Assembly: GCA_965224465.1 (NCBI GenBank)
Contig: OZ245049.1
Location: 3,030,001-3,062,000 of the forward strand
Length of the DNA stretch: 32,000 nucleotides
Source: Flavobacteriaceae bacterium
Lineage (GTDB): Bacteria; Bacteroidota; Bacteroidia; Flavobacteriales; Flavobacteriaceae
Direction of reading: 5' to 3'
Both the position numbers and the translations under genes were made by a program. The first letter of the stretch is position 1; every line of letters starts with the position of its first letter. Under the pieces are notes generated by a model. The model was not told the origin of the DNA. It made no database searches and saw only the letters and a program-made list of their open reading frames with translations. This document shows, one piece after another, positions 3,050 through 29,535 of the stretch.

Positions 3050-3070
3050 TGTTTAGAATGATTCTAAACA
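3050..3070. promoter_or_regulatory. Perfect 21-bp palindrome (10-1-10) just upstream of the plus operon; candidate operator
   Basis: tgtttagaat g attctaaaca was read directly. It lies 22 nt before the ATG at 3092 and 5 nt downstream of tatttttg (3038-3045), which fits the Bacteroidetes -7 box TAnnTTTG. No good -33 TTTG was found, so the promoter call is weak. Confidence 0.35.
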
Positions 3071-3091
3071 AAAAAACCAATTAATTAAGTA

Positions 3092-6000
3092 ATGTTTTGT
3101 TTTGCTATGATAACAAAAAATAACCAACAGAGACCTTCCGTTAATTCACGTTTAATAAATAACAATCAATCGTATAATCAATGTATAGGTACTGTGTCTT
3201 TACTTGAAACTATAGATGATCGTGAAAAAACGACTGTAAAAACTATTAAATACCAGATATCCAATACAGATTGGGATGCTTTAATAAAGAAAGCTGAAAC
3301 GGATGATATTTTGCCTTTCGCTGTTATTTTAAACACATTTATTCATGTTATAGAGCGATGGAGTTCTTCGTCTAGACTTATTTTGACACCTATTGTGGTT
3401 TCTGATGTAGAAGCGGTTTCATATTTAGAACAATTGTTTTCGCTTAGGAAAGTGCCATGGAATGCCTCTTGTAAGTATTTAGAATCACAAATATTTACCG
3501 ATATAAAGGCTGAAGAGTCTGAAGATGAGGATGCAGGGATTTCTGTTTTTATAACTACAAATCTAGAAGTTACCAGTGCTACGAATAAAGAAAGTGTCGC
3601 GTTATTTTTAAATAATAACGATGAGGTAGCAGTAAAAGGATTGCACTACCAGCTAGAAGAAACCAATGATGGGATAGAAATAAGTTGGACATTTAATCAC
3701 ACTTCTATTTCTGAAGTGTTGTTACAAGAAATGTTTGCGGCACAAATACGTATATTAGATTGGTTGGTACAAGAAAATTGGGACGCCCCTTTATTGGATA
3801 TACTACCCGAGAATCAAAAAAGTATACGAGCTAAAATAAACAATACTCAAACTTTTGTGACAGAAAAATGCTTGCATCAGGAGTTTTTTGAGACTGCTAC
3901 AACGCATAGTGAAAAAACAGCATTAATTTGGGAAGAAGAAGGCAGTGCTATAAAAATAGGATATGGAGATCTAAAAGATAAAGTACTTAGACTGGCATCA
4001 ATATTAGTTAGTAAAAATATACAACAAGGAGATTTTGTAGGGATCACTATTCCAAGAGGACCCAACCAAATTGTTGCAGTATTAGCAGTACTAGCTATTG
4101 GAGCTATTTATGTTCCGATAGGAGTAGATCAACCGAAGTCTCGTCAGAAACGAATTCATCAAATAGCGGGTATTTCGTATGTGATTATGGATGAGGAAGT
4201 TTCAGGATTCACAGGCCTTGATGTGGCTATAATTCAAGTTGCAGAAGAAGCAACAGCAGCTCCTTTGTCTCAACCAATATTTGTAGATCCAAATAAATTG
4301 GCATACGTAATTTTCACCTCAGGATCTACAGGGGAACCTAAAGGCGTAGCAATTTCACACAGTGCTGCTCACAATACAATTCAGGATATAAATAAACGAT
4401 TTTCCGTAACAGAAAAGGACACGGCGCTTGCATTGTCGGCATTGGATTTTGATTTGTCTGTGTATGATATTTTTGGATTATTAGCTGTAGGAGGTACGCT
4501 TGTTATGCTAAATGAAAAAGTAAGGAGAGAAGCTTCCGTGTGGACAAATCTTATTCAGAGTACAGGAGTTACTATTTGGAATTCAGTACCCGCATTGTTA
4601 GAGATGTTACTTAGTACAACTTTAGAAAAAGAACGTCTTGTTTCTTTGCGATTAGTGATGGTCTCTGGAGATTGGGTAGGCTTAGATCTTTTTGAAAGGC
4701 TGCGAAATGTATCACCAGATTCTCTTTTGGTTGCTTTGGGAGGAGCTACAGAGGCTTCTATATGGTCTAATTTTCATAAAGTGACTTATGTTGATCCGAA
4801 ATGGAGTTCTATTCCCTATGGTAAACCGCTAGAAAATCAATGTTTTAGAGTGGTAGATTTGTTTGGTAGGGATTGCCCTGATAGGGTCACGGGGGAATTA
4901 TGGATTGGTGGTATTGGGCTCGCAAAAGGATATTTAGGGCAACCAGATTTAACGGCTGATAAATTTATAACAATGGATAATCAGCGTTGGTATCGTACAG
5001 GTGATTTAGGAAGGTATTGGTCTGATGGTACTTTAGAGTTTCTTGGAAGAAAGGACGATCAGGTAAAATTACGAGGCTACCGAATAGAATTAGGAGAAAT
5101 AGAAGCTTTATTAAAAAAATCATGGGGAGTAGAACAGGCTGTTGCTGCAATTGCATCCATAGAGGGTACGCAGCATTTGGTTGCCGCTGTAGTTTCTGAA
5201 AAAACAGCAACAAATAGTGCGATAGCCGAACCAATAATATCGGAAGAGGTTTTATTATATAGAACAGTTTCAAGAGAAAAACAGGCAGTATCTATAGAAG
5301 TAGTTTTGTTTGAACTACTACATCTTGAAAAACTACTTCAAAACAAAGATGTTTATTGGAATCCGATGGAGCAATTTGAGTTAGCAGAGGAGCATTTGGC
5401 TGTTGTACAACTTTGGTTAGAATGGCTTGTAAAACGACAATTGTTAATGTTGGAAAATAAAACGTATCGTATTGGGAATAGGTTACAGGAAGTTTTTGAA
5501 GCATGGAAAGTAAAAAGTACAGTGTTAGCTACAGATGGAATTGAAGCAAAAGAAGACGTATTTTTAAAAAGGGTACAGAAATGTTTGTTTGAGCGTATTC
5601 CTGATTATTATAAAATTCTTTCGGGAAATATAGCAGCCACAGTGTTATTGGATGATCCTATAATATCTCCAGAGATTTTAGCTACAAAAGATGCTGGAAC
5701 CTTATGGGGAATTCAGGAAATTGCAATAAGAATAAATAAGCTAGCGGTACTAAAAGGGAGGCCAATCCAAGTTGCAGTTTTGGGTGGAAGAACAGGTTTA
5801 ATGACTGCTAGGTTGTTAAAAATATCATCAGCAGCAGAAATTAGCTGTACCCTTCTTGAAACGGCACCCTCTATGATTGAGGCTGCTAAAAAGAATTTAG
5901 AACCTTTCCCAGAAAATGCCTCCTGTTATAGAATTCCCGAGAATAGAATCCCCGAGGAATTGCATTATAAATTTGATGTAGTCTTGGCTATAAATGCATT

Positions 6001-6757
6001 GCACAGGTATAAAGACCCAGAAGAAGGAGTTGCTTTGGCTTCACTATTGGTTGCAAATCAAGGAAAAATAATAGCCTTAGAGCACGGAGAACTTAGTCCA
6101 ATTGCTGTTGTAACTTCTGCCTTGTTGGATAAAGGATACACTGATTTTGACCATCAAAGAAAAGGAATGTGTAGCCCAATGCTAACGGGGCAGGAATGGA
6201 TGAGAATCTTCTCAAAATATGGATATACTAAAATAAGTTGCCATGCAGTTGGTTGCTCTTTTACCGAACTAATAGAAGTTGAATGTCCAGAGGAAAGGAA
6301 AGAAATAAGCTCAGAAACAATAATGGATTATGTATCTCAGCATCTACCAAGTCATATGGTTCCTGAAAAAATTGTTGTATTGCCATGGTTTCCACTCAGT
6401 AAAAACGGAAAAGTGAATCGTTCTGAAATTACCAAATATTTTGATTTTCAAGCCGCATCAACATGTATGGAAGAACCTCATAAGGGAATGGAGCAGGAAA
6501 TTGCGGATATATGGAAAGAACTACTTCATACAGCTGTTATTAGTAGGTATCACAGTTTTTTTCAGATAGGAGGAGATAGTTTGTTGGGAACACGTTTTTT
6601 GACCATTATCAAAGAACGTTTTGAAATAGATGTATCCTTGAGGCAACTATTTGAATTCCCTACGTTGATTGCTGTTGCTGCTATTGTTGAAGAAAAGTAT
6701 AATGTACTAGCGGAACGCATGGAAGAAATGGAAGAAATGGAAGAAGGAGAGATATGA
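3092..6757 (+). CDS. NRPS subunit: C/Cy C-lobe remnant - A(Cys, methyltransferase-like insert) - PCP
   Basis: 1221-aa ORF. A-domain cores are LAYVIFTSGSTGEPKG (A3), FDLSVYDIF (A4), GGATEASIW, YRTGDLGRY (A7), GRKDDQVKLRGYRIELGEIE (A8) and PLSKNGKVNR (A10). A ~365-aa insert sits between A8 and A10. The carrier motif is FFQIGGDSLLG. ATGA overlaps the next gene at 6754-6757. An alternative ATG lies at 3107. Confidence 0.9.
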   Translation: MFCFAMITKNNQQRPSVNSRLINNNQSYNQCIGTVSLLETIDDREKTTVKTIKYQISNTDWDALIKKAETDDILPFAVILNTFIHVIERWSSSSRLILTPIVVSDVEAVSYLEQLFSLRKVPWNASCKYLESQIFTDIKAEESEDEDAGISVFITTNLEVTSATNKESVALFLNNNDEVAVKGLHYQLEETNDGIEISWTFNHTSISEVLLQEMFAAQIRILDWLVQENWDAPLLDILPENQKSIRAKINNTQTFVTEKCLHQEFFETATTHSEKTALIWEEEGSAIKIGYGDLKDKVLRLASILVSKNIQQGDFVGITIPRGPNQIVAVLAVLAIGAIYVPIGVDQPKSRQKRIHQIAGISYVIMDEEVSGFTGLDVAIIQVAEEATAAPLSQPIFVDPNKLAYVIFTSGSTGEPKGVAISHSAAHNTIQDINKRFSVTEKDTALALSALDFDLSVYDIFGLLAVGGTLVMLNEKVRREASVWTNLIQSTGVTIWNSVPALLEMLLSTTLEKERLVSLRLVMVSGDWVGLDLFERLRNVSPDSLLVALGGATEASIWSNFHKVTYVDPKWSSIPYGKPLENQCFRVVDLFGRDCPDRVTGELWIGGIGLAKGYLGQPDLTADKFITMDNQRWYRTGDLGRYWSDGTLEFLGRKDDQVKLRGYRIELGEIEALLKKSWGVEQAVAAIASIEGTQHLVAAVVSEKTATNSAIAEPIISEEVLLYRTVSREKQAVSIEVVLFELLHLEKLLQNKDVYWNPMEQFELAEEHLAVVQLWLEWLVKRQLLMLENKTYRIGNRLQEVFEAWKVKSTVLATDGIEAKEDVFLKRVQKCLFERIPDYYKILSGNIAATVLLDDPIISPEILATKDAGTLWGIQEIAIRINKLAVLKGRPIQVAVLGGRTGLMTARLLKISSAAEISCTLLETAPSMIEAAKKNLEPFPENASCYRIPENRIPEELHYKFDVVLAINALHRYKDPEEGVALASLLVANQGKIIALEHGELSPIAVVTSALLDKGYTDFDHQRKGMCSPMLTGQEWMRIFSKYGYTKISCHAVGCSFTELIEVECPEERKEISSETIMDYVSQHLPSHMVPEKIVVLPWFPLSKNGKVNRSEITKYFDFQAASTCMEEPHKGMEQEIADIWKELLHTAVISRYHSFFQIGGDSLLGTRFLTIIKERFEIDVSLRQLFEFPTLIAVAAIVEEKYNVLAERMEEMEEMEEGEI
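3224..3796 (+). other. Remnant of the C-terminal lobe of a condensation/cyclization domain (no catalytic N-lobe)
   Basis: Residues ~45-235 align with the second half of the Cy domains in this window. ISNTDWDALIKKAETDDILPFAVILNTFIHVIERW matches IDPISWNSFIKSAATKNLTPSAALLTLYTEVLSAW, and GIEISWTFNH matches GVTLSWDTLD. No FPLTxxQxAYxxGR or DxxxxDxxS motif is present, and a stop codon sits at 3086-3088 just upstream. Confidence 0.55.
3854..6427 (+). other. Adenylation domain, cysteine-type code (DLYNMSLIWK by manual extraction)
   Basis: Code positions were read from FDLSVYD (D,L,Y), IWNSVP (N), LVMVSGDW (M,S), ALGGATE (L), EASIW (I,W) and NGKVNR (K). Confidence 0.8.
5204..6301 (+). other. Methyltransferase-like domain inserted in the A domain, atypical SAM motif I
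   Basis: The insert lies between A8 and A10. WLEWLVKRQLLMLENKTYRIG parallels WLDILTKRGYIERLGTGFSMG of the stand-alone MT at 9139-10227. Motif I reads VAVLGGRTGLM instead of ILEIGAGTGAT. LLETAP, FDVVLAINALH and GKIIALEH are retained. Confidence 0.6.
6479..6691 (+). other. Peptidyl carrier protein domain
   Basis: FFQIGGDSLLGTRF contains the phosphopantetheine Ser (residue 1163). It is followed by the acidic tail MEEMEEMEEGEI. Confidence 0.85.
6719..6745 (+). repeat. Perfect 3 x 9-bp tandem repeat (ATGGAAGAA) encoding (MEE)3 in the C-terminal tail
   Basis: Read directly: atggaagaa atggaagaa atggaagaa, immediately before ggagagata tga. Confidence 0.95.
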
Positions 6758-7854
6758 TAGGAATTATAGGGGGCTACGGAGAAGTAGGAATTAATGCGAC
6801 AAGACTGCTTGTAAAATGGAACAAACAACCAATAAAAGTAGGTGGGAGAAACCCTGAAAAAGCAAAAGAAAAGTTCGAAAAAGAATTCCCGGAAGTATCG
6901 TGGGTTTTTGTTAATGTGTCTGATGATAATAGTTTAGAAGCTTTTATTAAGGGCTGTAATGTTGTTGTAAACTGTGTAGGGCCATCACACAAAGTATCTT
7001 CCAGAGTGGCGAAAATATGTTTGTGTCATAGTTGTCACCATATTGATGCAGGTGTAGACAAAGTATTGGAAGGGATGCATAGCATACAGACGGATGTCTC
7101 TATTAGGTATGGAGCAGGAACAACACCTGGTTTAACGGGTATTTTACCACAATGGATGGCGCAAGAACTTGACACTGTAAATTCGTTGATACTGTTTACA
7201 GGAGCTTTGGATCGGTTTACAGTTTCTGGGGCTGAAGATTATCTAGTAGGTGTTTTAGAAGATGCGAATGAACCTTTAGCGGCTTGGAGAAATGGAAAAA
7301 AGAAATCCTCGGTATTAAAAAGACAATCAGGAATAACAGTTCCCTTTTTTCCTAGAGAAGTAACTGTTTTTCCATTTTTTGATACCGAATCTTTAGTGGT
7401 AGCTAGAAACTTAGACCTGATCAATGGAGATTGGAATTTAGTGATTGACGGTACCCATGTGCCAGCGACTTTAAATAGTGTTCGGTCTCATTTTTATAAA
7501 AACCCAAAAGAAGCCATCAAAAAATTGTGCTTAGCAGCAGATTTAGACCTAGCAGGTAGGCAAACATATTTTAACCTTATTGTTCAGTTGGAAGGTGTCA
7601 AAGACAGAAAACCATGCATAAGAACTGCGATTCTACAAATGGATAGGATGTCGGTTTTAACAGGAGCTATAACAGCAATTGCCTGTATTTCTATCGTAGA
7701 AGATAAAGTCCCCTCAGGAATAGGTGCGGTCGCAGAATTACCGCATCCTGAGAGAATTATGGAGCGTCTTATGGCGTATGGAATAGTAACGGATTTTAAA
7801 ATATTAGAAACTTCGATTGCGGATCTGTTAGAAGAAGTAGAAGGCGAATTATAA
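6754..7854 (+). CDS. Saccharopine dehydrogenase-like NAD(P)-binding oxidoreductase
   Basis: 366-aa ORF. It has an N-terminal Rossmann loop IIGGYGEVG (GxGxxG) and the VVNCVGP motif characteristic of the saccharopine dehydrogenase NADP-binding family. It is translationally coupled to the upstream NRPS (ATGA) and ends in LLEEVEGEL. Confidence 0.6.
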   Translation: MIGIIGGYGEVGINATRLLVKWNKQPIKVGGRNPEKAKEKFEKEFPEVSWVFVNVSDDNSLEAFIKGCNVVVNCVGPSHKVSSRVAKICLCHSCHHIDAGVDKVLEGMHSIQTDVSIRYGAGTTPGLTGILPQWMAQELDTVNSLILFTGALDRFTVSGAEDYLVGVLEDANEPLAAWRNGKKKSSVLKRQSGITVPFFPREVTVFPFFDTESLVVARNLDLINGDWNLVIDGTHVPATLNSVRSHFYKNPKEAIKKLCLAADLDLAGRQTYFNLIVQLEGVKDRKPCIRTAILQMDRMSVLTGAITAIACISIVEDKVPSGIGAVAELPHPERIMERLMAYGIVTDFKILETSIADLLEEVEGEL

Positions 7855-7956
7855 AAAAATGAAACGTGTTGTAATTGGTATAAAATGAGGTGTGATTCGT
7901 TTTATACGATCTATATACGCATGGAGAGGACCTCTTAAAACTAAAAAAATAAACAG

Positions 7957-10230: not shown

Positions 10231-10233
10231 AAA

Positions 10234-10956: not shown

Positions 10957-10975
10957 AACAATAAAAAAATTAGAT

Positions 10976-15916: not shown

Positions 15917-15960
15917 CATTGAAAGAGGATGATAGATACACTAAAATAAACAGTAAAAAA

Positions 15961-17307: not shown

Positions 17308-17382
17308 TTTCAAAATAGTTTACAGTGGTTATTTGGAACCGAGTATAGGATTAACTTATGTAGATGCATTACCTAGTGTATT

Positions 17383-18009: not shown

Positions 18010-18026
18010 TATCTAAGGCGTTAATT

Positions 18027-18060
18027 ACCATCAATAATTTAAGGATTATTGATGGTTTTA
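18027..18060. terminator. Hairpin between the convergent operons; likely intrinsic terminator for the plus operon
   Basis: A perfect 12-bp stem (accatcaataat at 18027-18038, attattgatggt at 18045-18056) has a 6-nt loop and is followed by ttttaataatgttttt. The right arm encodes the last codons (..TINNP*) of the minus-strand thioesterase gene. Confidence 0.5.
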
Positions 18061-18788: not shown

Positions 18789-18799
18789 AGGTGTTTTTT

Positions 18800-21700: not shown

Positions 21701-24700
21701 GATGTTGCCTTGACGGTAGCGGCCATAATCTCCAGTATCATAGAGTCTTTGTTGCAGTTCTTTTTCAAAAAAGAAAGCACTGTTGCTGCGTTTTTTTTCT
21801 TTTAGATATCCTGTAGCGAGCCCTTTACCTGCAATGTGTAGTTTTCCTTCTACCCATTCTGGGCACGGTCTATTAAATGTATCTAGGATATAAAATTCCT
21901 GATTTGCCAAAGGGTATCCATACGGAATGGATTTCCAGTCTGGATCAAGGACGTCTACATGGTAGTAGTTGGACCAGATAGAAGCTTCCGTAGCTCCTCC
22001 CATGCTTGTTAATGTTGCATGGGGGATTGCAGTGTTTATTTTTTGAATAAGCCCTAAGGGAATCCAGTCTCCAGAATGGATGATTTTACATAAGGAGAGG
22101 TCTTTACCTACCGTTGGATTTTTTAACATATAATCGCAGTAAATATCCATTAATGCAGGAACAGAATTCCAGATACTTACTTGGTGTTGGGAAGAAAGTG
22201 TTTTCCAACATTTAGGGTCGATACGCTCTTCTTCTGTTGGCAATACCAGCGTTCCTCCTGCATGTAGCAGTCCAAAAATGTCATATACAGAAAGGTCAAA
22301 ACTTAAGGAAGAAACTCCTAAAACACGGTCTTTTTCTGTGATTTTTAGTTTGTTGTTTACATCGATTATGGTATTCATCGCTGCTTTGTGTTGAATACAG
22401 ACTCCTTTTGGAATGCCGGTAGAACCAGAGGTGTAAATGATATATGCTAATTCTGAGGGATTGATGGCTATTGATGTATAAAGATCCTTTATAGTATCAA
22501 TATTCGGAGGCGTAAATTGTTTGACATCTAGTTTGCCAGTATCTAAAATTTGATCTGTAAAAATAGCAATTGCTTCGGATTGTTTTAGTATTTCGATTGT
22601 TCTGTTTATCGGTTGATTATATGTAAACGGAATGTAAATAGCTCCTATTTGTAAGATTCCCAGAACCACCGCAATTTGATCAAAAGATTTAGCCATTTGT
22701 AGGGCTACTTTATCTCCCTTTTTAAGGGAATTTTTTTGAAGTAAAACAGAGACTTGATTTGCTCTTTTGATTAGCTGTTTATAGGAGTATTCTTTTTGCT
22801 TGTAGATAATAGCAGTACTCTTTGGTGTTTGGAGTGCATTTGCGTAGATTTTTTCGTGTAATAACAAATTTCCAATTGGTGAAAAAGTGTTGTTTGCTTC
22901 TTGCTGAACTGCCAATTGTTTGGAAGTTCTTAAATCTGTTAAACTTTTGTCCCAGAACGTATTGTCTGTGATGGAAAGTTGTACAAGCTCGGTATATTTC
23001 TCGAACATTGCAGCTATCATATCCCTTGGGAAAACAGCATCTAAAGTATCCCACGATAAGGTAACGCCTCCATTTTGATGGTAGATTTGATGATCTATCC
23101 AAACTTGTGGAGTAGAAGAAACGGACCAGTTTATTTGGTTTAAAAACCCTTGTTGCTCATCTTGTTTAAGAGTATCAATGCCAAGGGCGCTAGTAAATAC
23201 AAAAGGATACATGCGGTTTTTGGTATCGGATTGGCTATTGAGTTTTTTTACAAATTCAATAGCCGAGTAGGTACTGTTTTCTAAGTCTGTATGCATTTGT
23301 GCTTGTATCGTAGTCCCGTTTTTTCCAGTAGCTTGTTGCTTTCTCTCAATTTCAACCAAGGTTAGTTGTGTAAAATCTCCTATGATTTCGTTGATTTGAG
23401 GATGCACATTATCTCTATTAAATACAGTGAGCATAACTGCAAAATGCGAACCACCACCCCAGGCAGAAAGCACTTCGGTATAGAGCGTTAGCAATGCAGC
23501 AGAAGGAGTCAGGTTTTTTGTTGCTGCAGATTTTATAAAAGAGTTCCATGATATTGGATCTATCCAATGCTCTCTTCTTTTGAAATGTCCTTCCACCTGT
23601 TTTTTTCCAGTATCTTTAACAGGGAGTTGTGGTGCAAGTGGGAAATGTTGTATTCTGTTTGTCCAGTATTGTTCGGCTTGATGGTATGTGTTTGTAAATG
23701 TTCGTTTGTTGTGATAATGAAGGTAATCTTTATAAGATATTTCTAAAGGATTTAAGGAAACTCCTGTGTATAAAAGATATAAGTCTTTCCAAAATATGAA
23801 GAGACTTAAAGCATCGGCAATAAGAAAATCTATCGTAAAATGGATGCGGTGCTTGTGATTTTCCAGCTCAGAAATTCGCATTTCGAACATAGGTTCTCCC
23901 AAAGGAATAATCTTGGTAGCCATTTCATCTCTTAGTTGTTGTAAATGCTCTTTTAAAGATGGTATATCCGTTTTTTTGTAGATTATAAGAGGCGTCGGGA
24001 TGGATGCTTTGATTTGTTGCTTGCCATCTTTAGAAATTATACACCGCAACATCTCATGTCTTTTGATGAGGTTTTGCAAGGCTCTATCAAAATGTTGAAT
24101 GCTTAGGTTTTCAATGTCCATTTCAAAATACGCACTGCAACTTACACCTCCCCAGTCCATTTCGTGATTTCGTCCTGCCCAATAGGCATATTGAATTTCA
24201 TTTAAAGGAAAGGATTCATGTCGTTGTTTTGGGAATGCCTGAAAGATTGAAACAGGTGTGTTATTTATTTCTTTGAGCGTGTTATGTAAGGCTTTATGCA
24301 CGATCTCAGTCCATTGGTTTATAGTGCTTTGCTTTAAAAACAAGGCGGGTTTTAAAGTAATAGCAAGGTCTTTTTTCCAAAAGGTGATTAAACGAATAAT
24401 TACAATAGAATTAAGTCCTAATAATAGTAAATTTTCATCATTTTGTAAATCTTCTTCTTCTATTTCCCATTCCTTTATAAGTGAAGTTCTTATGTAATTT
24501 TTAAGTTCAGAAATGTTTGTAAAAGTGTTGATAGTTACTTCCTGTTCTTCTTCAATATCTTCTTCGTTTTCTGGCTTTATAAGTGGGGTGTTTTTTATAA
24601 AATCCAAAATTGCAGGACTGTGTTCTTTCTCTTCTTTTGTAAGAGAAGAATTGTTGATGTTTTCTTTTATCTTTTCCCAAACAGTTGTTTTAGGAAGCGT

Positions 24701-27415
24701 ATAAGCTTCAAGGGAAGGTGAAAGTTTAAAGTGTTTTTCTCTAAACATATAATTAGGGACACGGATTTTTATTAGGTTGGAGTTGTTGTAATATGCTTTC
24801 CAATTAATGGGAGCCCCACAGAGGTATAACTGAAACAAACTTTTTTCAATCCGATGCGCTGTTTTTTCATCTTTATAGTTAGAAGCTATAATTTCAGCAC
24901 CGTCTTTAGTTATTTGTTCTACAATAGTTATAAGTGTAGGAGAAGGTCCTACTTCTAAAAAGATATAATCATTGCTGTTGTGTATGGATTGAATCGTAGT
25001 ACAGAACTTTACTGTAGACAAGATATGTGTACTCCAATAGTGCCAGGTTGTCATTTCTAAAGTAATGTCTTTACCTGTAACACTAGAGCGTATGTTTTTT
25101 GTTGGAACATGGTATTTAATTTTTTTAGAAACGTTCTCAAATTCGGTCAACATGGGCTTCATAAGAGGGGAATGTGCAGCAAGAGAAACATCTAATTTTT
25201 TGGTATCGATTCCTTTTTCTTTAAATAGTTGACATACTTTTTGTACTTGCTTTTCGGTGCCCGAAATAACCGTTTGCTCAGGAGTATTTACGGCGGCAAT
25301 AGTTACGTTTTTAATATTTTTTATGTTGTTTTGTACAGTTGTTTCATCCGTAAAAATGGCAGCCATTGTACCGTTTTTAGGTAAAGAATACATGAGCTCA
25401 CCTCTAATTGTAATAAGTTGAATAGCATCTTCCAATGTAAAAATTTCCGCCAAGCAGGCTGCAATATATTCTCCTGTACTATGTCCTATAAGCAGGTTTG
25501 GTGTAAGCCCATAATCCATCCACATTTTGGACAAAGAGTATTCCACAAAAAATAATGCCACCTGTGTATATCGCATTTCATGGACTGTATTATCCGAAGA
25601 AAATATCTTTTCCAATAAATTGTTCTGTGTCTGGTTTTTGTATATCTGATTGCATTGATCCATGTACTTTTTAAAGTACTTGTTTTCGGTATAGAAACCT
25701 TTAAACATTCCAGGGTACTGAGATCCACCACCACTGTATAGAAAAACAATTTTTTTATTGGAGGTACTTCTGTTTATTACAGCATTAGAAACGCCTTTAA
25801 TTGCTTCTTCTAAATTGGTTTTTAATGCTTCTGTGGTTTCTCCCCAAACCACTATTTTTTCTTTTAAGTCTGCTTTGGTACTGTTTTGACTATAGCTTAA
25901 GCTTCCCAGTTGCTGAGGTGTTTTTTCTTTTATAAATGATAAGAAGGAGTGTAGTTGGTTTTTTAGTCCAGCTTTGGTAACTGCACTAAATTTGAAGGGC
26001 CAACTTCTCTTTGCATCTGGAGTTTCTTTGTTTTTGTGCGCTATAGAATCGCAGGGGTGTTCTTCTATTACAATATGTGCGTTTGTACCACTTAAGCCAA
26101 AGGCACTAATAGCTGCTTTTCTTAGGGTTGTTTTATTCCAAGGTATTGTTTTTTGTGGAATTTTAAATTTCTGATCAGACCAGTTAATATGGGGAGAAGG
26201 GGTTTTGAAGTGTAAATTACCTGGGATTTTTCCTTTTTCTACAGCGAGAATAATTTTTATTAGACCAGCTATTCCTGCGGCGGCTTCAAGGTGCCCAATT
26301 GCAGTTTTAACAGCTCCTAGATATATGGGGGTTTCGCGGTTTGACGAAATTACATTTCCTAATGCAGTGATTTCTATGGGGTCTCCTAAGGCAGTTCCAG
26401 TACCGTGTGTTTCTATAAAATCAATATCAGCAGCATTTATTTTACTGCGTTTCCATACCTCTTTAATTAATTTTTCTTGTGCAGGTCCGTAAGGAGCCGT
26501 CAATCCAGCACTTAAACCATCTTGATTGGTTCCACTTCCTTTTATGATGGCATGTATATGATCTCCGTCTCTTTTGGCGTCAGATATTTTTTTTAAAATC
26601 ACGACTCCGCTTCCTTCTCCTCGCACTGTACCATTGGCAGCGGCATCAAAAGTTTTAATTTCACAATTTTGAGACAATACATTAAGAGAGGCCATGAGCT
26701 CTGTTGTTTCGGGAGAGAGCATTAGGTTTACACCCCCAGCTATTGCCATGTCACAATCACCTGATAGGAGCCCTTTGCATGCCAAATCTACCGAAACCAA
26801 AGAGGAGGAACAAGCGGTGTCTGTACTTATACCAGGGCCTTGAAAACCAAAAAAGTAGGAAGCTCTTCCAGAAATAAACGAAAATCCTGCTCCCATTGCA
26901 TCGTTGGGATCTGTTGGGGAATTTTCGTTTTTATAATTTAATAGTTGTTGAAGATGGTCAAAAGAAGATACACCTGCATAGATTCCTGTTTTTGATCCTT
27001 TTAGTGAATCGGGTGCGTATCCTGAATTTTCTAAAGCTTCCCAACATACTTTTAAGAAAAGACGTTGTTGAGGATCTGTTTTTTCAACTTCGTTTGGAGA
27101 AAGTCTAAACAAGCGATGGTCAAACCCATACACGTCATCAAATAAGAACCCTCCTTTTTGTAAAAAAGGATTATTTTTTAGTTTTTCTTGGTCATAATTT
27201 TCCCATCTATTGTCAGGAACTTTACCAATCATATTTTTTTGTTCTAGTAATGCGTTCCAATACTCCTCTGGAGAGTTAATGCCCCCGGGAAATCTACATG
27301 CCATCCCTATAATAGCGATGGGTTCTTGTTGGTCTTTTACTTCTTTTTTTAAGCGTTTTATTTCTGTGAGAGCTTTTATTAAAATGGGAGTCTTATCGGT
27401 GGTTTGTTTTTTCAT
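18800..27415 (-). CDS. Hybrid PKS-NRPS megasynthase: KS-AT-ACP-Cy-A(Cys)-PCP-Ox-(internal docking domain)-Cy
   Basis: 2871-aa ORF; residues were counted manually and domain motifs are given below. The N-terminal coiled-coil-like ILIKALTEIKRLKKEVK is typical of KS N-terminal docking helices. Confidence 0.95.
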   Translation of the reverse strand: MKKQTTDKTPILIKALTEIKRLKKEVKDQQEPIAIIGMACRFPGGINSPEEYWNALLEQKNMIGKVPDNRWENYDQEKLKNNPFLQKGGFLFDDVYGFDHRLFRLSPNEVEKTDPQQRLFLKVCWEALENSGYAPDSLKGSKTGIYAGVSSFDHLQQLLNYKNENSPTDPNDAMGAGFSFISGRASYFFGFQGPGISTDTACSSSLVSVDLACKGLLSGDCDMAIAGGVNLMLSPETTELMASLNVLSQNCEIKTFDAAANGTVRGEGSGVVILKKISDAKRDGDHIHAIIKGSGTNQDGLSAGLTAPYGPAQEKLIKEVWKRSKINAADIDFIETHGTGTALGDPIEITALGNVISSNRETPIYLGAVKTAIGHLEAAAGIAGLIKIILAVEKGKIPGNLHFKTPSPHINWSDQKFKIPQKTIPWNKTTLRKAAISAFGLSGTNAHIVIEEHPCDSIAHKNKETPDAKRSWPFKFSAVTKAGLKNQLHSFLSFIKEKTPQQLGSLSYSQNSTKADLKEKIVVWGETTEALKTNLEEAIKGVSNAVINRSTSNKKIVFLYSGGGSQYPGMFKGFYTENKYFKKYMDQCNQIYKNQTQNNLLEKIFSSDNTVHEMRYTQVALFFVEYSLSKMWMDYGLTPNLLIGHSTGEYIAACLAEIFTLEDAIQLITIRGELMYSLPKNGTMAAIFTDETTVQNNIKNIKNVTIAAVNTPEQTVISGTEKQVQKVCQLFKEKGIDTKKLDVSLAAHSPLMKPMLTEFENVSKKIKYHVPTKNIRSSVTGKDITLEMTTWHYWSTHILSTVKFCTTIQSIHNSNDYIFLEVGPSPTLITIVEQITKDGAEIIASNYKDEKTAHRIEKSLFQLYLCGAPINWKAYYNNSNLIKIRVPNYMFREKHFKLSPSLEAYTLPKTTVWEKIKENINNSSLTKEEKEHSPAILDFIKNTPLIKPENEEDIEEEQEVTINTFTNISELKNYIRTSLIKEWEIEEEDLQNDENLLLLGLNSIVIIRLITFWKKDLAITLKPALFLKQSTINQWTEIVHKALHNTLKEINNTPVSIFQAFPKQRHESFPLNEIQYAYWAGRNHEMDWGGVSCSAYFEMDIENLSIQHFDRALQNLIKRHEMLRCIISKDGKQQIKASIPTPLIIYKKTDIPSLKEHLQQLRDEMATKIIPLGEPMFEMRISELENHKHRIHFTIDFLIADALSLFIFWKDLYLLYTGVSLNPLEISYKDYLHYHNKRTFTNTYHQAEQYWTNRIQHFPLAPQLPVKDTGKKQVEGHFKRREHWIDPISWNSFIKSAATKNLTPSAALLTLYTEVLSAWGGGSHFAVMLTVFNRDNVHPQINEIIGDFTQLTLVEIERKQQATGKNGTTIQAQMHTDLENSTYSAIEFVKKLNSQSDTKNRMYPFVFTSALGIDTLKQDEQQGFLNQINWSVSSTPQVWIDHQIYHQNGGVTLSWDTLDAVFPRDMIAAMFEKYTELVQLSITDNTFWDKSLTDLRTSKQLAVQQEANNTFSPIGNLLLHEKIYANALQTPKSTAIIYKQKEYSYKQLIKRANQVSVLLQKNSLKKGDKVALQMAKSFDQIAVVLGILQIGAIYIPFTYNQPINRTIEILKQSEAIAIFTDQILDTGKLDVKQFTPPNIDTIKDLYTSIAINPSELAYIIYTSGSTGIPKGVCIQHKAAMNTIIDVNNKLKITEKDRVLGVSSLSFDLSVYDIFGLLHAGGTLVLPTEEERIDPKCWKTLSSQHQVSIWNSVPALMDIYCDYMLKNPTVGKDLSLCKIIHSGDWIPLGLIQKINTAIPHATLTSMGGATEASIWSNYYHVDVLDPDWKSIPYGYPLANQEFYILDTFNRPCPEWVEGKLHIAGKGLATGYLKEKKRSNSAFFFEKELQQRLYDTGDYGRYRQGNIIEFLGRKDTQLKINGYRVEIGEIQAAFRKYATNTDPIIIPIGDKMEHKKLIAFVKCPASEFSETELKMHLKTQLPDYFIPEKILCLDVYPMSANGKVDRKKLLKYYHKYNSDNTPISSNTAEEHHPVLNLIKNILGLPKLKSKDNFSDLGVSSVAMIKLANELEIHFTERPSVGEMIRYSSIKQLIAYYDDKGFSFEEKEIPSDKAASPFSLYSTEQKAYLNNITTIENYEEYISFKETISAHRTDLSLQNSISLDLPLEEKNPLGTITNSFNNYLNSPIENLNFKKFISFCLQQNIYGEKSYNYNSLSETYPIQTYLTIFNKGIEGIEQGNYYLDVQAHSLIKLGNITEIASISFRNMMPNTSFLVHFVADLNAVYPIHQDKSLQICFIESGILSQLLESKSPSLNIGCSSLTAYDFDEIKASFNLSIHQFYLHTMAGGKIDFAQEIEQLQLRSDTTADKDSLKTCDAILNTCKDKEILLYVKEGKLKFKAPKGALSKTLLEKIKASKNALLHVLIQPKKQEQVTHILRKYQPFKLTPIQLAYLFGRSSNFEIGNINTHYYLELECHQLDPKRLEHAWNGVIKRHEMLRTKVYSNASQQLMKKVPFFTIPVRQIQSEQALETIRNKWSHHNYQLGTWPMFHLQLSQIGTDISRIHFSFDCLLLDASSTEMVVQELFASYYGKEIATPKFTFKEYMNQEEKWLHTQSNISEAQQFWNAHIKQIPPAPNLPLKTAFKDIEKPFFKRWKIVLDTEKSTQLFSKIKQYRFTPSAVICTIFMKVLAHWSTNPDFTINLTIFNRFPIHKDVPKILGDFTNVTLISYFKNDNKTILEEIETVQQQLWKAVEYRTQDGMDILKRLGKDSPGKALMPIVFTSLLFGETQEKNTHYPPELKEVFAISQTPQVAMDHQVYERNGSIHINWDIVDNVFENKWIEEMVRTYENMLHQFIALEDWDQYIEIPQLEKSNH
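18821..20110 (-). other. Heterocyclization (Cy) domain 2, at the extreme C-terminus with no A or PCP following
   Basis: Motifs are FKLTPIQLAYLFGR, DCLLLDASS (DxxxxDxxS) and SQTPQVAMDHQ. The protein ends ~10 residues after the domain. Confidence 0.88.
20141..20308 (-). other. Internal TubC_N-type beta-hairpin docking-like domain
   Basis: ILNTCKDKEILLYVKEGKLKFKAPKGALSKTLLEKIKASKNALLHVL shares the 10-residue string GKLKFKAPKG with the N-terminal docking domain at 10988-11149. Five of those ten codons differ synonymously. Confidence 0.65.
20366..21058 (-). other. FMN-dependent oxidase (Ox) domain, thiazoline to thiazole
   Basis: KSYNYNSLSETYPIQ fits the Ox-1 motif KYxYxSxGxxYPxQ, and GIEGIEQGNYYLD fits Ox-2 GxxxGxxxGxYYxxP. 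These motifs are described for the EpoB/BlmIII/MtaC-D Ox domains and are recalled from memory. Confidence 0.7.
21131..21334 (-). other. Peptidyl carrier protein domain
   Basis: FSDLGVSSVAMIKL contains Ser2058. Confidence 0.8.
21386..22873 (-). other. Adenylation domain, cysteine-type code (DLYNISMIWK by manual extraction), no MT insert
   Basis: Cores are AYIIYTSGSTGIPKG, FDLSVYDIF, IWNSVPAL, KIIHSGDW, SMGGATEASIW, YDTGDYGRY, GRKDTQLKINGYRVEIGEIQ and PMSANGKVDRK. Confidence 0.8.
22946..24223 (-). other. Heterocyclization (Cy) domain 1
   Basis: Motifs are FPLNEIQYAYWAGR, DFLIADALS (DxxxxDxxS) and SSTPQVWIDHQ. Confidence 0.88.
24296..24523 (-). other. Acyl carrier protein domain
   Basis: LLLGLNSIVIIRL contains Ser1003, with Asn in place of the usual Asp before the Ser. 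Only ~100 residues separate AT and ACP, so there is no room for KR/DH/ER. Confidence 0.7.
24836..25753 (-). other. Acyltransferase domain (probably malonyl-specific)
   Basis: The active site is GHSTGEY. The downstream motif SLAAHSPLM is FabD/malonyl-like (xAFHS) rather than YASH. The specificity call is weak. Confidence 0.75.
26051..27322 (-). other. Ketosynthase domain (catalytically complete)
   Basis: DTACSSSLV contains Cys202 (codon at 26810-26812). ETHGTGT and GHLEAAAG supply the histidines. Confidence 0.9.
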
Positions 27416-27417
27416 AA

Positions 27418-29535
27418 CTAGTCATTTAATTCGTTGTTTAATAGCGTAAGTAGGTCGTCTTCGGAGCATTGGTCATACTCAGATTCTTTAGGTGTTACAT
27501 GCGTTACGTCAAATGTTTTGTTAGTATTGTTTTTAAGATTCACTAAATAGCTGCTTAATTGATCAATGGTATTGTAGTTAAATAATACAGTAGCAGGGAT
27601 AGGTTCTTTGATACTATCTTCGAGAGCGTCTCTGATTAATAAAGACATCATAGAGCTAATTCCCAGTTCTACAAATGGTATTGTAGGGTCAAAATCTGTT
27701 TTTGAGACTCCTAACTGTTCTGCAACCAAGCGTGTTATGTATTCGTTTAGTTGTTCTTTATTTCGCAAATCTGTGATGGGGTATTTTAGATATGTTTTGG
27801 TATAGGAATGAAGCACTTTTTTCCATTCCTTATCAAGGTACATTGCTTTGGTTTTGCTACGCTGTATTTTTCCGCTAGTTGTTCTAGGAAGATGCATGGG
27901 GGGAATAAAAAGAATAGCTTCTAATTGGATGCCGTGTATCCTCAATGTTTCTTCTTTAATTTGTTGAATCCATACATCATATTGTGGAGTTCTTACTGCG
28001 CCTCGGGTAAGTTCTTGTATGAGAATTACTTTTTCTTGCCCTTCTTTTGTGATGGAAAATGCGGCGGCACCGTCTGTTCTAAAGTTGCTATTGGCAATAA
28101 AAGAAGACCGCTCTATATCATGTGGGTAATAGTTGACCCCATTAATGATAATTAAATCTTTTATTCTTCCAGTGACATATAATTCTCCTTTCTGATCTAA
28201 AAAACCAAGATCTCCTGTTCTTAAATAGATGGATGATTGCGTAGAATTTTCTGAGACAAAAGCCTTTGTAGTAGCTGCTAGATTGTTCCAATATCCCTTG
28301 GTTACCGAAGGTCCCGAAAAACAAATTTCTCCAATTTCACAGCTGCCTAAGGGAGTTGTTTGTGTTGGATCTCTAATGGTTACTTTATTGTTATTTATAA
28401 TTGTTCCGTTGCTTACTAAAAAGGAAGTATGATCTTCTTTTTTTTGGATAGGAGCGCTCATGTCTTGTAGTAACCCTTGGCGTATAATTTTAACGGTATT
28501 GTTTAGGAGTGCTTTTCGTTCTACCTCAATCCAATGTACTTTACGTCCCATAAAAGTAGATGAAATTGCCAAGGTGCTTTCTGCCAATCCATAGCTAGGT
28601 GATAAGGTTGTAGGTCCCATTCCAAAAACTGATGCGATGTTTTGAAAGCGATACATGGTATTCAGGTGAATAGGTTCTGCCCCACAAACAGCTCTTATCA
28701 AAGTATGTAAAGAAAGGTCTTTTACTGTTGTTTTTTCTAATTTTTCTGCCAGTAGTTCATACGCAAAATTCGGTGCAGCTGTATGTGTTCCACGGTACAT
28801 AGAAATGGCTTTTGCCCAGATTAATGGTTGACTCATAAAATCGGTTGGATGTATCAAAACAACTTTACACCCGGAGAATAAACCTTGCAATATGCCAAAA
28901 ATGAGTCCCATATCATGATAAAAAGGCAACCAGCTAACAATTACACTGTCTTCTTTGATGGCTTGAAATTGCTTTACTTCTTTGAGATTGTTAATCAAAG
29001 ACGATTGGGTGACCATGACTCCTTTTGGATTTCCTGTTGATCCAGAAGTGTATTGAAGAAATGCGATTTCGTTGACACGATAAGGGCTAGAAATAGTGCC
29101 ATTATCAGTATGTGAAAAAGAAGGAATTACAAGGGAAGAGAGTATTGAAGAATTCGCGGTACAATTAGATAAAAAGTCGATACTATGGCGGTCTGTTAAA
29201 ATAGCTTTCGCATTGCAGTCTGTTGCAATTTTTTCCCACTTTGTCAGTGCTTTGTTTCTTCCAGGCATGTTTAAAGGAATCGGGATGACTCCAATCCAAT
29301 TGCATGCTAAAAAACAGATTATAAAATCAAGTCCTTGTGGAAAGAGTAAAAGACAGCGATCTCCATGATTAATTTCGGATACAATTAATTGTTTGGCATA
29401 GCGCTCTACCTGATCCAAAAGTTCCAAATAGGTGATGCTTGTACTATTTAGATCGGCATCTATAAAACTATAGGCGCATGTATTGGGAGATGTTTTAGCT
29501 CTTGATTGTAATTTATTTATAATAGTGTCGGTCAT
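27418..29535 (-). CDS. Fatty acyl-AMP ligase (FAAL) fused to an ACP: loading module
   Basis: 705-aa ORF. FLQYTSGSTGNPKGVMVTQSSLINNL, YLRTGDLGF and GRIKDLIIINGVNYYPHDIE are FAAL-type cores. The C-terminal carrier motif is FVELGISSMMSL, and the acidic helical tail is DDLLTLLNNELND. The stop lies 2 nt before the megasynthase start. Confidence 0.9.
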   Translation of the reverse strand: MTDTIINKLQSRAKTSPNTCAYSFIDADLNSTSITYLELLDQVERYAKQLIVSEINHGDRCLLLFPQGLDFIICFLACNWIGVIPIPLNMPGRNKALTKWEKIATDCNAKAILTDRHSIDFLSNCTANSSILSSLVIPSFSHTDNGTISSPYRVNEIAFLQYTSGSTGNPKGVMVTQSSLINNLKEVKQFQAIKEDSVIVSWLPFYHDMGLIFGILQGLFSGCKVVLIHPTDFMSQPLIWAKAISMYRGTHTAAPNFAYELLAEKLEKTTVKDLSLHTLIRAVCGAEPIHLNTMYRFQNIASVFGMGPTTLSPSYGLAESTLAISSTFMGRKVHWIEVERKALLNNTVKIIRQGLLQDMSAPIQKKEDHTSFLVSNGTIINNNKVTIRDPTQTTPLGSCEIGEICFSGPSVTKGYWNNLAATTKAFVSENSTQSSIYLRTGDLGFLDQKGELYVTGRIKDLIIINGVNYYPHDIERSSFIANSNFRTDGAAAFSITKEGQEKVILIQELTRGAVRTPQYDVWIQQIKEETLRIHGIQLEAILFIPPMHLPRTTSGKIQRSKTKAMYLDKEWKKVLHSYTKTYLKYPITDLRNKEQLNEYITRLVAEQLGVSKTDFDPTIPFVELGISSMMSLLIRDALEDSIKEPIPATVLFNYNTIDQLSSYLVNLKNNTNKTFDVTHVTPKESEYDQCSEDDLLTLLNNELND
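27532..27762 (-). other. Acyl carrier protein domain of the loading module
   Basis: The LGISS motif places the Ser near residue 627-628. Confidence 0.8.
27781..29535 (-). other. FAAL adenylation domain
   Basis: See the CDS entry. There is no A10 lysine-containing CoA-ligase tail before the carrier domain. Confidence 0.8.

Follow-up and report, generated by a model that had tools for sequence, protein, structure and literature searches.

A lipid-primed thiazol(id)ine gene cluster from an Aquimarina-like marine bacterium and its probable kinship with sorangibactin, anthrochelin and bulbichelin

The closest described systems are the sorangibactin (srb), anthrochelin (ant) and bulbichelin (bbch) clusters, a family marked by tandem N-methyl-thiazolidines and by chain release onto homocysteine to give a thiolactone (PMC10127202, PMC13573596). 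A cysteine nucleophile has been reported for the thioesterases (TEs) of SrbD, AntB and BbchF, each offloading its chain onto homocysteine (PMC10127202, PMC13573596). Pyochelin (PchE/F/G) and yersiniabactin (HMWP1/2, YbtU) share with the present locus Cy-based thiazoline formation and in-trans reduction by a PchG/YbtU homolog, but differ in their salicylate cap, single thiazolidine and hydrolytic release by a Ser-TE. As in this locus, micacocidin, massiliachelin and agrochelin start from a FAAL-initiated fatty acyl unit that passes to a PKS before Cys heterocyclisation, and a thiazolidine is made. Bacillamide (BmdB/BmdC) and epothilone (EpoB) likewise combine Cy-A-PCP with a BmdC-homologous FMN oxidase converting thiazoline to thiazole.

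Organization of the locus and its starter unit

The window analyzed is a stretch of 32,000 nt of OZ245049.1 (GCA_965224465.1) and carries an intact cluster from an Aquimarina-like marine Bacteroidota bacterium (Table 1). Domain content, motifs and family relationships are directly observed: ORFs A to J are all intact, as are their catalytic motifs (domain and motif search, 3092-29535), and the closest relatives are Aquimarina (59-83% identity, with synteny), in agreement with the host phylum first proposed. Every domain named in the initial annotation was located (FAAL-ACP, KS-AT-ACP, three Cy, three Cys-code A, Ox, reductase, TE, PPTase, type II TE and MATE), although ORF B (Sacchrp_dh_NADP) and ORF D (Glyoxalase_3) had been omitted. 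The product is probably a fatty-acid-capped relative of sorangibactin, anthrochelin and bulbichelin, which are sulfur-rich metal chelators. Comparative analysis moderately favors placing the cluster in the coelibactin-like family of thiazol(id)ine metallophores, as a member primed by a fatty acyl/polyketide unit. The lipid-primed variant is new; the chelator family and its kind of chemistry are known.

Table 1. Features of the cluster and its right-hand neighbor in window coordinates
ORF	Feature	Position	Strand	Evidence
A to J	Cluster	3092-29535	both
A	A-PCP with insert in A domain	3092-6757	+
A	Degenerate C-terminal half of Cy	3254-3778	+	weak: BLASTP vs ORF E Cy (aa 233-434), 22% identity, E 2.5e-6, small database
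A	A2 core, DLYNMSLIWK, Cys-like	3884-5161	+	domain, Stachelhaus code
A	MT-like insert, PchE epimerase type, VAVLGGRTG, no GxGxG	5615-6133	+	PchE 7EMY aa 1080-1247, E 1e-9
A	PCP2	6494-6682	+	domain
B	Saccharopine-dehydrogenase-like NADP-binding, SrbE-like	6754-7854	+	PF03435, 41.4 bits
C	N-terminal thiazolinyl imine reductase, Irp3/YbtU/PchG type	7966-8982	+	TIGR01761, PF21390, PDB 4GMF/5KVQ
C	C-terminal class I SAM methyltransferase, EIGAGTG	9541-10155	+	domain, PDB, motif
D	Glyoxalase-like/VOC, SrbJ-like	10234-10956	+	PF13468, 50.9 bits
E	dock-Cy-A-PCP-TE (domains)	11006-15913	+
E	N-terminal TubC_N docking domain	11006-11152	+	PF18563, 55.7 bits
E	Cy3	11171-12520	+	domain; EFLIADWAS, FTS, TPQVFID
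E	A3 core, DLFNLSLIWK, Cys-like	12590-13855	+	domain, Stachelhaus code
E	Degenerate MT-like insert, ILQIGEKGK	13898-14479	+	weak similarity to ORF C MT, E 9e-5
E	PCP3	14687-14893	+	domain, motif
E	Terminal TE, GYCMG	15023-15913	+	PF00975
F	MATE efflux protein	15919-17307	+	PF01554, E 3e-32
G	Sfp-type 4'-phosphopantetheinyl transferase	17383-18009	+	PF01648, PF22624
H	Type II thioesterase, GHSMG	18039-18788	-	PF00975, E 4e-40
I	KS-AT-ACP-Cy-A-PCP-Ox-dock-Cy	18800-27415	-
I	C-terminal Cy2	18857-20095	-	domain; DCLLLDASS, FTS, TPQVAMD
I	Internal TubC_N-type docking domain	20147-20293	-	PF18563, 40.8 bits
I	FMN oxidase (Ox), thiazoline to thiazole	20369-20875	-	BmdC structures 7LY4-7LY7, E 4e-17
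I	PCP1	21137-21322	-	domain, motif
I	A1, DLYNISMIWK, Cys-like	21386-22840	-	domain, Stachelhaus code
I	Cy1	22916-24250	-	condensation family; DFLIADALS, FTS, TPQVWID
I	PKS-module ACP	24263-24484	-	domain, motif
I	AT, GHSTGE	24839-25747	-	Acyl_transf_1; FabD and MdcH similarity; motifs
I	KS, Cys/His/His triad intact	25889-27325	-	ketoacyl-synt N and C domains; DTACSSS, ETHGTGT, KTAIGHLE
J	FAAL-ACP	27418-29535	-
J	Loading ACP, Ser in GISSM	27514-27762	-	PP-binding domain, motif
J	FAAL	27811-29535	-	Pfam AMP-binding and DIP2-like C-terminal domain; best NCBIfam families fatty-acid--AMP ligases
K	Membrane protein	30054-32000, past right window end	-	reading frame open to window edge

The best PDB relatives of ORF J are all FAALs (7R7E, 3KXW, FadD23, 3PBK, FadD32 and FadD28). 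In the PKS module of ORF I, the AT specificity motif is atypical (LAAH instead of HAFH/YASH) and the extender assignment is not firm. The domain search detected no KR, DH or ER in this module, and the AT-to-ACP spacing of just 118 aa leaves no room for any of them. It also upheld the earlier view that the machinery for a salicylate cap is lacking, since genes for a salicylate synthase, an aryl-AMP ligase and an aryl carrier protein are all absent from the cluster. Its starter, from FAAL-ACP and an unreduced KS-AT-ACP, distinguishes the locus from srb, ant and bbch with their salicylate/aryl starter proteins; the PKS-to-Cy hand-over is shared with HMWP1.

In micacocidin and massiliachelin, too, a lone PKS module with a fused or neighboring FAAL precedes Cy, and iteration of FAAL plus KS-AT-ACP might build an alkyl-salicylate or alkyl-resorcylate cap and an alkyl-aryl-thiazole siderophore. 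This seems very improbable. The loading PKS of micacocidin, massiliachelin and agrochelin, which iterates to a 6-alkylsalicylate, includes a KR, whereas KR, DH, product-template and cyclase domains are all lacking in ORF I, and no aromatase or cyclase gene lies within the window. Downstream modules and release chemistry are also different. The loose likeness to micacocidin noted initially therefore fails at the KR, and because this domain is missing the cap is expected to be a linear 3-oxoacyl chain.

The FAAL-PKS starter is shared with Clostridium butyricum, C. beijerinckii, Pelosinus, Sporomusa, Paenibacillus, Cohnella and three Aquimarina lineages, and no characterized product was found for this architecture; more than 30 protein clusters keep the complete layout. 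The FAAL-PKS-primed architecture is common in Bacillota, and the chemistry is not confined to Bacteroidota. The uncharacterized clusters of Pelosinus fermentans, Sporomusa, C. butyricum/beijerinckii, Cohnella and Paenibacillus arenosi are identical to the present one in gene set and domain order (homologs of ORFs J, I, A, B, C and E, 40-66% identity), but in most of them the TE carries Ser and a VOC gene is missing. Moreover, genes of the uncharacterized FAAL-PKS-NRPS relatives are collinear on a single strand with an adjacent AraC regulator, unlike the two-strand layout here. The Ox domain, present in ORF I, is missing from most relatives (some 25 of the 33 close homologs of ORF I). P. arenosi, for example, has a Cys-TE and a VOC gene as here, but no Ox.

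Heterocyclisation modules and tailoring proteins

Three Cy-A-PCP modules with Cys-type codes (canonical reference, DLYNLSLIWK) are a feature shared with srb, ant and bbch. However, in sorangibactin assembly the first A domain activates Ser despite a Cys-like code (PMC10127202), so that the codes found here fall short of proof of Cys. In contrast to those three systems, the second module is divided between two proteins: its Cy stands at the C-terminus of ORF I, its A-PCP on ORF A. Cy2 of ORF I must work in trans on ORF A, at whose start a degenerate half-Cy remnant retains neither DxxxxD nor the catalytic Asp. The internal docking domain of ORF I is probably a gene-fusion scar, and the acidic C-terminal tail following PCP2 of ORF A (EEMEEMEEGEI) may bind the docking domain of ORF E. 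The Ox region gives no Pfam match in spite of its BmdC similarity. While ring 1 of sorangibactin is oxidized by the P450 SrbH, an in-line BmdC-type Ox would act here; unlike the bacillamide and epothilone enzymes, it is fused after PCP1 in a PKS-NRPS megasynthase, with two non-oxidized rings predicted to follow.

An Irp3-like reductase, a SrbE-like NADP protein, a SAM methyltransferase, a SrbJ-like VOC protein and a Cys-nucleophile TE are all shared with srb, ant and bbch, and a stand-alone type II TE with ant and bbch. Matched by the published description of srb (PMC10127202), ORF B corresponds to SrbE, ORF C to SrbI plus MT and ORF D to SrbJ, and a Sorangium cellulosum locus carries homologs of these ORFs at 34-38% identity. 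Further differences from the three systems are the fusion of reductase and MT in one protein, ORF C, and the host, a Flavobacteriaceae bacterium. The ORF C reductase scores 289 bits against TIGR01761 (cutoff 188.8) and E 8e-38 against PDB 4GMF/5KVQ. ORF B, whose homolog is kept beside the reductase gene in most related loci, is a candidate second thiazoline reductase; production of sorangibactin requires SrbE (PMC10127202). The AF2 model of ORF D has a two-module VOC fold (pLDDT 88.9).

Of the methyltransferase(s) announced in the initial annotation, one stands: the MT of ORF C is the only canonical one among three MT-like regions, which makes double N-methylation uncertain. The ORF A insert resembles the PchE epimerase, a type common to the pyochelin/yersiniabactin systems; its VAVLGGRTG aligns with VAVLDTRAG of PchE (7EMY, best PDB match), and its GxRxG motif is conserved across its family. 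The ORF E insert is degenerate, has no Pfam match and is absent from the Pelosinus and Clostridium ORF E homologs (1458 aa).

Chain release and predicted product

The terminal TE of ORF E had been recognized, but its nucleophile had been missed: it is a cysteine (Cys1421, nt 15236-15238) rather than a serine. Among 62 related loci, a VOC gene adjoins 31 of the 42 clusters with a Cys-TE and none of the 20 with a Ser-TE (raw counts, kinship ignored). The Cys-TE together with ORFs B, C and D matches the sorangibactin/anthrochelin/bulbichelin set, and this changes the predicted end of the molecule to homocysteine, with four S. The pyochelin/yersiniabactin logic proposed at first thus holds for heterocycle and reductase chemistry but is too coarse as a family assignment; those systems lack the SrbE-like gene, the SrbJ-like gene and the Ox domain found here. 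Likewise, two N-methyl-thiazolidines are expected in place of the thiazolidine-thiazoline acid with three S.

Hydrolytic release would give a 3-oxoacyl-thiazole followed by one (N-methyl)thiazolidine, a terminal thiazoline and a free carboxylic acid, with three S. The Irp3/PchG-type reductase and the PchE-like insert are consistent with such a product, carboxylic-acid shunt products are known in the family (sorangibactin D and bulbichelin B), and hydrolysis is the probable release route in Pelosinus, Clostridium and Cohnella, whose FAAL-PKS clusters have a Ser-TE and lack a VOC gene. It is nevertheless unlikely here, given the cysteine of the TE, the restriction of the VOC gene to Cys-TE clusters in the 62-locus sample and the presence of ORFs B and D, whose homologs are essential for sorangibactin, a two-thiazolidine molecule with a homocysteine terminus.

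With release onto homocysteine, the likely product is one in which a 3-oxoacyl-capped thiazole leads into two N-methyl-thiazolidines and then a terminus derived from homocysteine; it would contain four S atoms. Because every FAAL-PKS-primed member is without a known product, this structure is predicted by analogy only. The domain map agrees with the assembly-line logic of the initial annotation, namely loading by the FAAL, a single malonate extension without reduction, heterocyclisation of three Cys, one oxidation step and reduction of thiazoline. In the module order proposed, ORF J would convert a fatty acid to acyl-AMP and load it on its own ACP, and the KS-AT-ACP of ORF I, used non-iteratively, would add one malonate and leave the 3-keto group unreduced. 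Cy1-A1-PCP1 would add and cyclise Cys, and Ox would yield a 2-(2-oxoalkyl)thiazole. Cy2 would form the second ring on Cys held by A2-PCP2 of ORF A, whose PchE-like insert may epimerise it, and Cy3-A3-PCP3 of ORF E would form the third. Rings 2 and 3 would be reduced to thiazolidines by the ORF C reductase, probably with ORF B, and N-methylated by the ORF C MT domain. The Cys-TE would then release the chain onto homocysteine, thiolactone formation being helped by ORF D and/or ORF H, and ORF F would export the product. If so, the O,N metal ligand would be an enolisable 3-oxoacyl-thiazole in place of the phenol-azoline unit, and the chelator would be amphiphilic because of its lipid tail.

Genomic context and function

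The same assembly line could mainly supply a lipophilic antibiotic, a cytotoxin or a host-interaction/virulence factor of pathogenic Aquimarina. The window contains a MATE exporter and neither a TonB receptor nor a metal-responsive regulator, antibiotic activity is known for related arylthiazoles, among them the bilothiazoles, and the closest full-cluster strains, I32.4 and TRL1, are lobster-disease isolates. Such a role is nonetheless distinctly unlikely as the main one: the characterized relatives are all metallophores, metallophore and bioactive roles can coexist, and homologous clusters are flanked by genes for a TonB receptor and XusB or an ECF transporter. The Pelosinus cluster has a TonB-dependent receptor and an ECF transporter; in Aquimarina sp. 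I32.4, an ABC2-membrane-like gene is followed by ABC ATPase, YceI, DoxX, XusB and TonB-dependent receptor genes. These metal-uptake genes support the metallophore reading.

ORF K shares 69% identity with the 1091-aa ABC2-membrane-like protein encoded beside the FAAL gene of strain I32.4, and possibly belongs to cluster-associated transport; its synteny with that transporter block suggests that the cluster may reach past 29535 and off the window. ORF H is 72% identical to its counterpart beside the ORF I homolog of the same strain. The MATE exporter class is not siderophore-specific. ORF F is 76% identical to the syntenic gene of Aquimarina aquimarini, in which a Cys/Met-metabolism PLP enzyme gene comes after the MATE gene and fits a need for homocysteine supply.

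Gene organisation and heterocyclisation modules

The cluster is not a categorically new system: it joins a known NRPS and tailoring chassis to a new starter and an in-line oxidase, in a host phylum that is unusual. Ten intact genes are arranged in two divergent arms within 3092-29535, and the set of FAAL-ACP, KS-AT-ACP, Cy, A, Ox, reductase, TE, PPTase, type II TE and MATE functions listed by the initial annotation is present, far beyond what chance would produce. GC content gives no contrast between the cluster and its flanks. The non-coding region 5' of ORF A contains no regulator gene, whereas homologous clusters of Bacillota carry an AraC gene at the matching position. The two left-flank genes appear unconnected to the cluster.

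Features of the cluster and its flanks, with the basis of assignment where reported
Feature	Position (nt)	Strand	Product or domain organisation	Basis
Left-flank gene	17-1168	+	NosD-like beta-helix protein, C-terminal CxxCH haem-binding motif GICAGCHAMG	
Left-flank gene	1347-2174	-	GH114 glycoside hydrolase lipoprotein	
Non-coding region	2175-3091		917 bp, AT-rich	
ORF A	3092-6757	+	[N-terminal region]-A(insert)-PCP	Pfam/NCBIfam
ORF A, aa 55-229	3254-3778	+	Cy-like lobe	Internal BLAST
ORF A insert	5615-6133	+	MT-like	PDB search
ORF B	6754-7854	+	Saccharopine-dehydrogenase-like NADP-binding protein	PF03435
ORF C	7957-10230	+	Irp3-type reductase fused to class I MT	Pfam/NCBIfam
ORF C, MT half	9541-10155	+	Canonical MT (EIGAGTG)	
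ORF D	10234-10956	+	Glyoxalase_3/VOC protein	PF13468
ORF E	10976-15916	+	TubC-dock-Cy-A(insert)-PCP-TE	Pfam/NCBIfam
ORF E, Cys1421	15236-15238	+	TE nucleophile (GYCMG)	
ORF F	15919-17307	+	MATE exporter	
ORF G	17383-18009	+	Sfp-type PPTase	
ORF H	18039-18788	-	Type II TE	
ORF I	18800-27415	-	KS-AT-ACP-Cy-A-PCP-[gap]-TubC-dock-Cy; gap = Ox	Pfam/NCBIfam
ORF I, gap	20369-20875	-	FMN oxidase (Ox)	PDB search
ORF J	27418-29535	-	FAAL-ACP	Pfam/NCBIfam
ORF K	30054-32000	-	Membrane protein, cut by the window edge	

According to motif checks, each of the three Cy domains retains FTS and TPQVxxD, all five carrier-protein serines are intact and the A domains keep motifs A3-A10. The A-domain codes, DLYNISMIWK (ORF I), DLYNMSLIWK (ORF A) and DLFNLSLIWK (ORF E), were read off an alignment to a GrsA Phe-A fragment; as a control, this fragment returned its published code, DAWTIAAICK. 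Each code differs from the canonical Cys code by one or two residues, which upholds the three Cys-type codes proposed initially. Three Cy-A-PCP modules with Cys/Ser-type A domains are also a trait of the sorangibactin family.

The most likely order of the line is J, I, A, E, in which ring 2 would be formed by Cy2 of ORF I acting in trans with ORF A, and ring 3 by ORF E. Two features of the I/A junction had escaped the initial annotation: a TubC_N docking domain lies inside ORF I, preceding Cy2, and the first ~230 aa of ORF A include a lobe with weak likeness to the C-terminal half of a Cy domain. This lobe is without DxxxxD, FTS and the catalytic Asp, and a Pfam search of the ORF A N-terminus gave only a sub-threshold GNAT match. 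Since the full Cy2 ends ORF I on the opposite strand, the remnant seems to be the scar of a split or a fusion, and it may be a docking remnant of the split module. Where ORF A truly starts is uncertain, its Aquimarina homolog being 53 aa shorter.

The nature of the A-domain inserts had likewise not been recognised. Of the methyltransferase(s) announced initially, only the C-terminal half of ORF C proves canonical, and it is the only such domain in the cluster. The ORF A insert carries VAVLGGRTG and has no GxGxG; among solved structures it best matches PchE, in the MT-like epimerisation region (7EMY aa 1080-1247, E 1e-9), whose VAVLDTRAG aligns with it. The replacement of the SAM-binding GxGxG by G-x-R-x-G is family-wide in ORF A-type inserts (loci L001-L073), and the conserved Arg suggests a retained role other than methyl transfer. 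The ORF E insert, which has no Pfam match and in internal BLAST is only faintly similar to the MT of ORF C, appears to be degenerate. As for the ORF C MT, its nearest solved structures are PKS C-methyltransferases (DisA, AprA MT2, CurJ, PsoF and the citrinin/lovastatin CMeT), with no N-methyltransferase among them.

Starter arm and the first ring

No salicylate synthase, isochorismate synthase/lyase, salicyl-AMP ligase or aryl carrier protein is encoded among the window ORFs of at least 100 aa, in agreement with the initial annotation. The salicylate starter of the sorangibactin family is thus replaced by FAAL-ACP (ORF J) and KS-AT-ACP (ORF I). In a PDB search, the solved structures most similar to ORF J are FAALs without exception. 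The KS Cys/His/His triad and the AT GHSTGE motif of ORF I are intact; the AT substrate motifs (GHSTGE and LAAH) are atypical, and the call between malonyl and methylmalonyl is of low confidence. A hidden reductive domain between AT and ACP is impossible because the linker is only 118 aa long, so the extension module does lack reductive domains, as had been proposed. ORF J would load a fatty acid, to which the PKS module would add a single malonate while keeping the 3-keto group; we infer that the module is used for one round.

The loose resemblance to micacocidin noted earlier extends to the loading of a fatty acid by FAAL-ACP (Pfam, NCBIfam and PDB searches), but not to the loading PKS, which in micacocidin and massiliachelin includes a KR domain. 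Pfam and motif searches found no KR in ORF I. An iterative aromatic starter of the micacocidin type, although compatible with the shared loading step, is therefore disfavoured relative to a fatty 3-oxoacyl starter.

The gap in ORF I, for which a Pfam search returned nothing, is an FMN oxidase matching BmdC, the bacillamide NRPS oxidase (PDB search, E 4e-17). Together with Cy1, A1 and PCP1 it would yield a 2-(2-oxoalkyl)thiazole. In sorangibactin ring 1 is oxidised by a P450, whereas here the oxidase is in line. Its presence varies among otherwise collinear ORF I homologs (P0136-P0172). More than 30 of these, including proteins from Sporomusa, C. estertheticum and Ruminococcus, have the full architecture; Ox is kept in about eight (Aquimarina, Pelosinus, Sporomusa and a few metagenomic proteins) and missing in about 25, including those of Clostridium, Paenibacillus, Cohnella and Ruminococcus. 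This patchiness predicts that ring 1 occurs both as a thiazole and as a thiazoline.

Tailoring and chain release

The coelibactin-like sorangibactin cluster encodes a saccharopine dehydrogenase NADP-binding protein (SrbE) and a glyoxalase-like VOC protein (SrbJ), both needed for production, two methyltransferases (SrbF and SrbG) and an Irp3-like thiazolinyl imine reductase (SrbI); the product bears tandem N-methyl-thiazolidines, and a TE with an essential Cys nucleophile passes the chain to homocysteine or methionine, resulting in a thiolactone (PMC10127202). The same Cys-TE is reported in SrbD, AntB and BbchF, of the sorangibactin, anthrochelin and bulbichelin systems, and a stand-alone TE has been proposed to carry out thiolactonisation in bulbichelin biosynthesis (PMC13573596). 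All these tailoring and release elements, including the type II TE, are found in the window.

ORF C provides the trans-acting, SrbI-like reductase (TIGR01761, 289 bits, cutoff 188.8; PDB YbtU/Irp3, E 8e-38). ORF B, the SrbE-like protein (PF03435, 41.4 bits, cutoff 25.1), is found in synteny at related loci, and ORF D is SrbJ-like (PF13468, 50.9 bits). Neither ORF B nor ORF D gave a match in PDB sequence searches. The AF2 model of ORF D (pLDDT 88.9) has a two-module VOC fold; its nearest structure by fold search is an uncharacterised S. aureus protein of generic VOC fold, so that no chemistry can be assigned to it. At the Sorangium cellulosum So0157-2 locus, used as a proxy for the Srb/Ant/Bbch comparison, homologs of ORFs B, C and D are 34-38% identical. 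ORF B, ORF D and the TE cysteine had all been overlooked initially.

The pyochelin/yersiniabactin logic invoked at first holds for the PchG/YbtU-type reductase and for the PchE-type epimerase insert. Those systems, however, have a salicylate cap and hydrolytic release by a Ser-TE, whereas the window is without salicylate genes and its TE is of the Cys type. In a comparison of 62 non-redundant related loci, the nucleophile of the terminal TE is Cys in 42 and Ser in 20. Of the 42 Cys-TE loci, 31 have a VOC gene no more than 10 kb away; of the 20 Ser-TE loci, none does (Fisher's test, p = 2e-8, kinship among loci being ignored), an association that points to a VOC role in release or in the thiolactone step and ties the SrbJ-like enzyme to Cys-TE/homocysteine release. 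Hydrolytic, pyochelin-like release, which underlay the three-sulfur product predicted initially, suits the Ser-TE relatives; the Cys-TE and VOC gene of the window would instead, by analogy, fit homocysteine release and four sulfur atoms. Most Bacillota FAAL-PKS relatives belong to the Ser-TE class and the window to the class with Cys-TE and VOC gene; starter type and release type have therefore been shuffled independently.

If sorangibactin and bulbichelin are a guide, ORF C would reduce rings 2 and 3, ORF B being a candidate for the second reductase, and the ORF C MT would methylate them, on N if the analogy holds and otherwise on C. The Cys-TE would then hand the chain to homocysteine, ORF D and/or ORF H taking part in closing the thiolactone. 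The mature product would contain four sulfur atoms, and acids with three would arise as shunt products. The cluster, which encodes its own PPTase and exporter, is a compact, self-contained target for genome mining, useful for testing homocysteine offloading by Cys-TEs and the roles of SrbE-like and SrbJ-like enzymes.

Relatives, genomic context and putative metallophore role

The reductase-MT fusion typified by ORF C has hundreds of relatives, and 80 loci from species-representative genomes, fetched by reductase-MT alignment, were scored with the proteins of the window. The FAAL and KS starter recurs in Pelosinus fermentans, Clostridium butyricum, C. beijerinckii, Cohnella, Paenibacillus arenosi and a Bacillota MAG; this starter variant is widespread. 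No characterised FAAL-PKS-primed member was found in open-access papers. Bilothiazoles, fatuamide, lusichelins and leptochelins were rejected as the product, being aryl-capped or without the FAAL and reductase logic.

The nearest relatives of the cluster are all Aquimarina (Flavobacteriaceae), as expected from the Bacteroidota host recognised initially. ORFs J, I and H have counterparts in Aquimarina sp. I32.4 at 71-75% identity, with an ORF D homolog (65%) on a separate contig; in Aquimarina sp. TRL1, ORFs I and D are 59% and 60% identical, respectively. After these, in order of closeness, come Bacillota (47-63% identity), a pattern suggestive of transfer between phyla. Strains I32.4 and TRL1 are lobster-disease isolates, and since they are the closest carriers the product is a candidate virulence-associated metallophore.

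ORF K shares 69% identity with an ABC2-membrane-like protein of I32.4 (1091 aa), whose gene adjoins the FAAL gene. Beside it (L087, 1-7759) are an ABC ATPase, YceI, DoxX, XusB and a TonB-dependent receptor, likely an uptake or export block of the cluster, which suggests that the right boundary of the cluster lies past 29535. Around the Pelosinus cluster lie genes for a TonB receptor, an ECF transporter and an AraC regulator. The TonB, XusB and ECF neighbours support a metallophore role, although a different role for the product would be compatible with the same chemistry.

With a metallophore as the preferred reading, the composite proposal, offered tentatively and at somewhat below even chance, is a new type of amphiphilic chelator: a fatty 3-oxoacyl-thiazole-bis(N-methylthiazolidine)-homocysteine thiolactone with an enolisable beta-keto-thiazole in place of the phenolate ligand by which all known members are defined. 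Among NRPS-PKS thiazol(id)ine metallophores it would be the first from Bacteroidota, probably Bacillota-derived and common to lobster-pathogenic Aquimarina, and may aid metal acquisition or virulence. If so, the salicylate head of this widespread metallophore family would be exchangeable for a beta-keto lipid made by FAAL and PKS, and marine Bacteroidota as well as many anaerobic Bacillota, Clostridium butyricum and C. beijerinckii among them, would make membrane-anchored chelators.

The ORF A-F block recurs, 66-83% identical, in A. aquimarini and a related assembly. Its surroundings out to 10 kb contain neither a FAAL nor a KS gene, so the cluster is split or incomplete in these genomes. Directly after the block comes a PLP enzyme gene of Cys/Met metabolism (PF01053; L001 19690-20832, GCA_921010045.1; also in L031), in the place that the PPTase and the FAAL/PKS arm occupy in the window. 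This enzyme could be a supplier of homocysteine.
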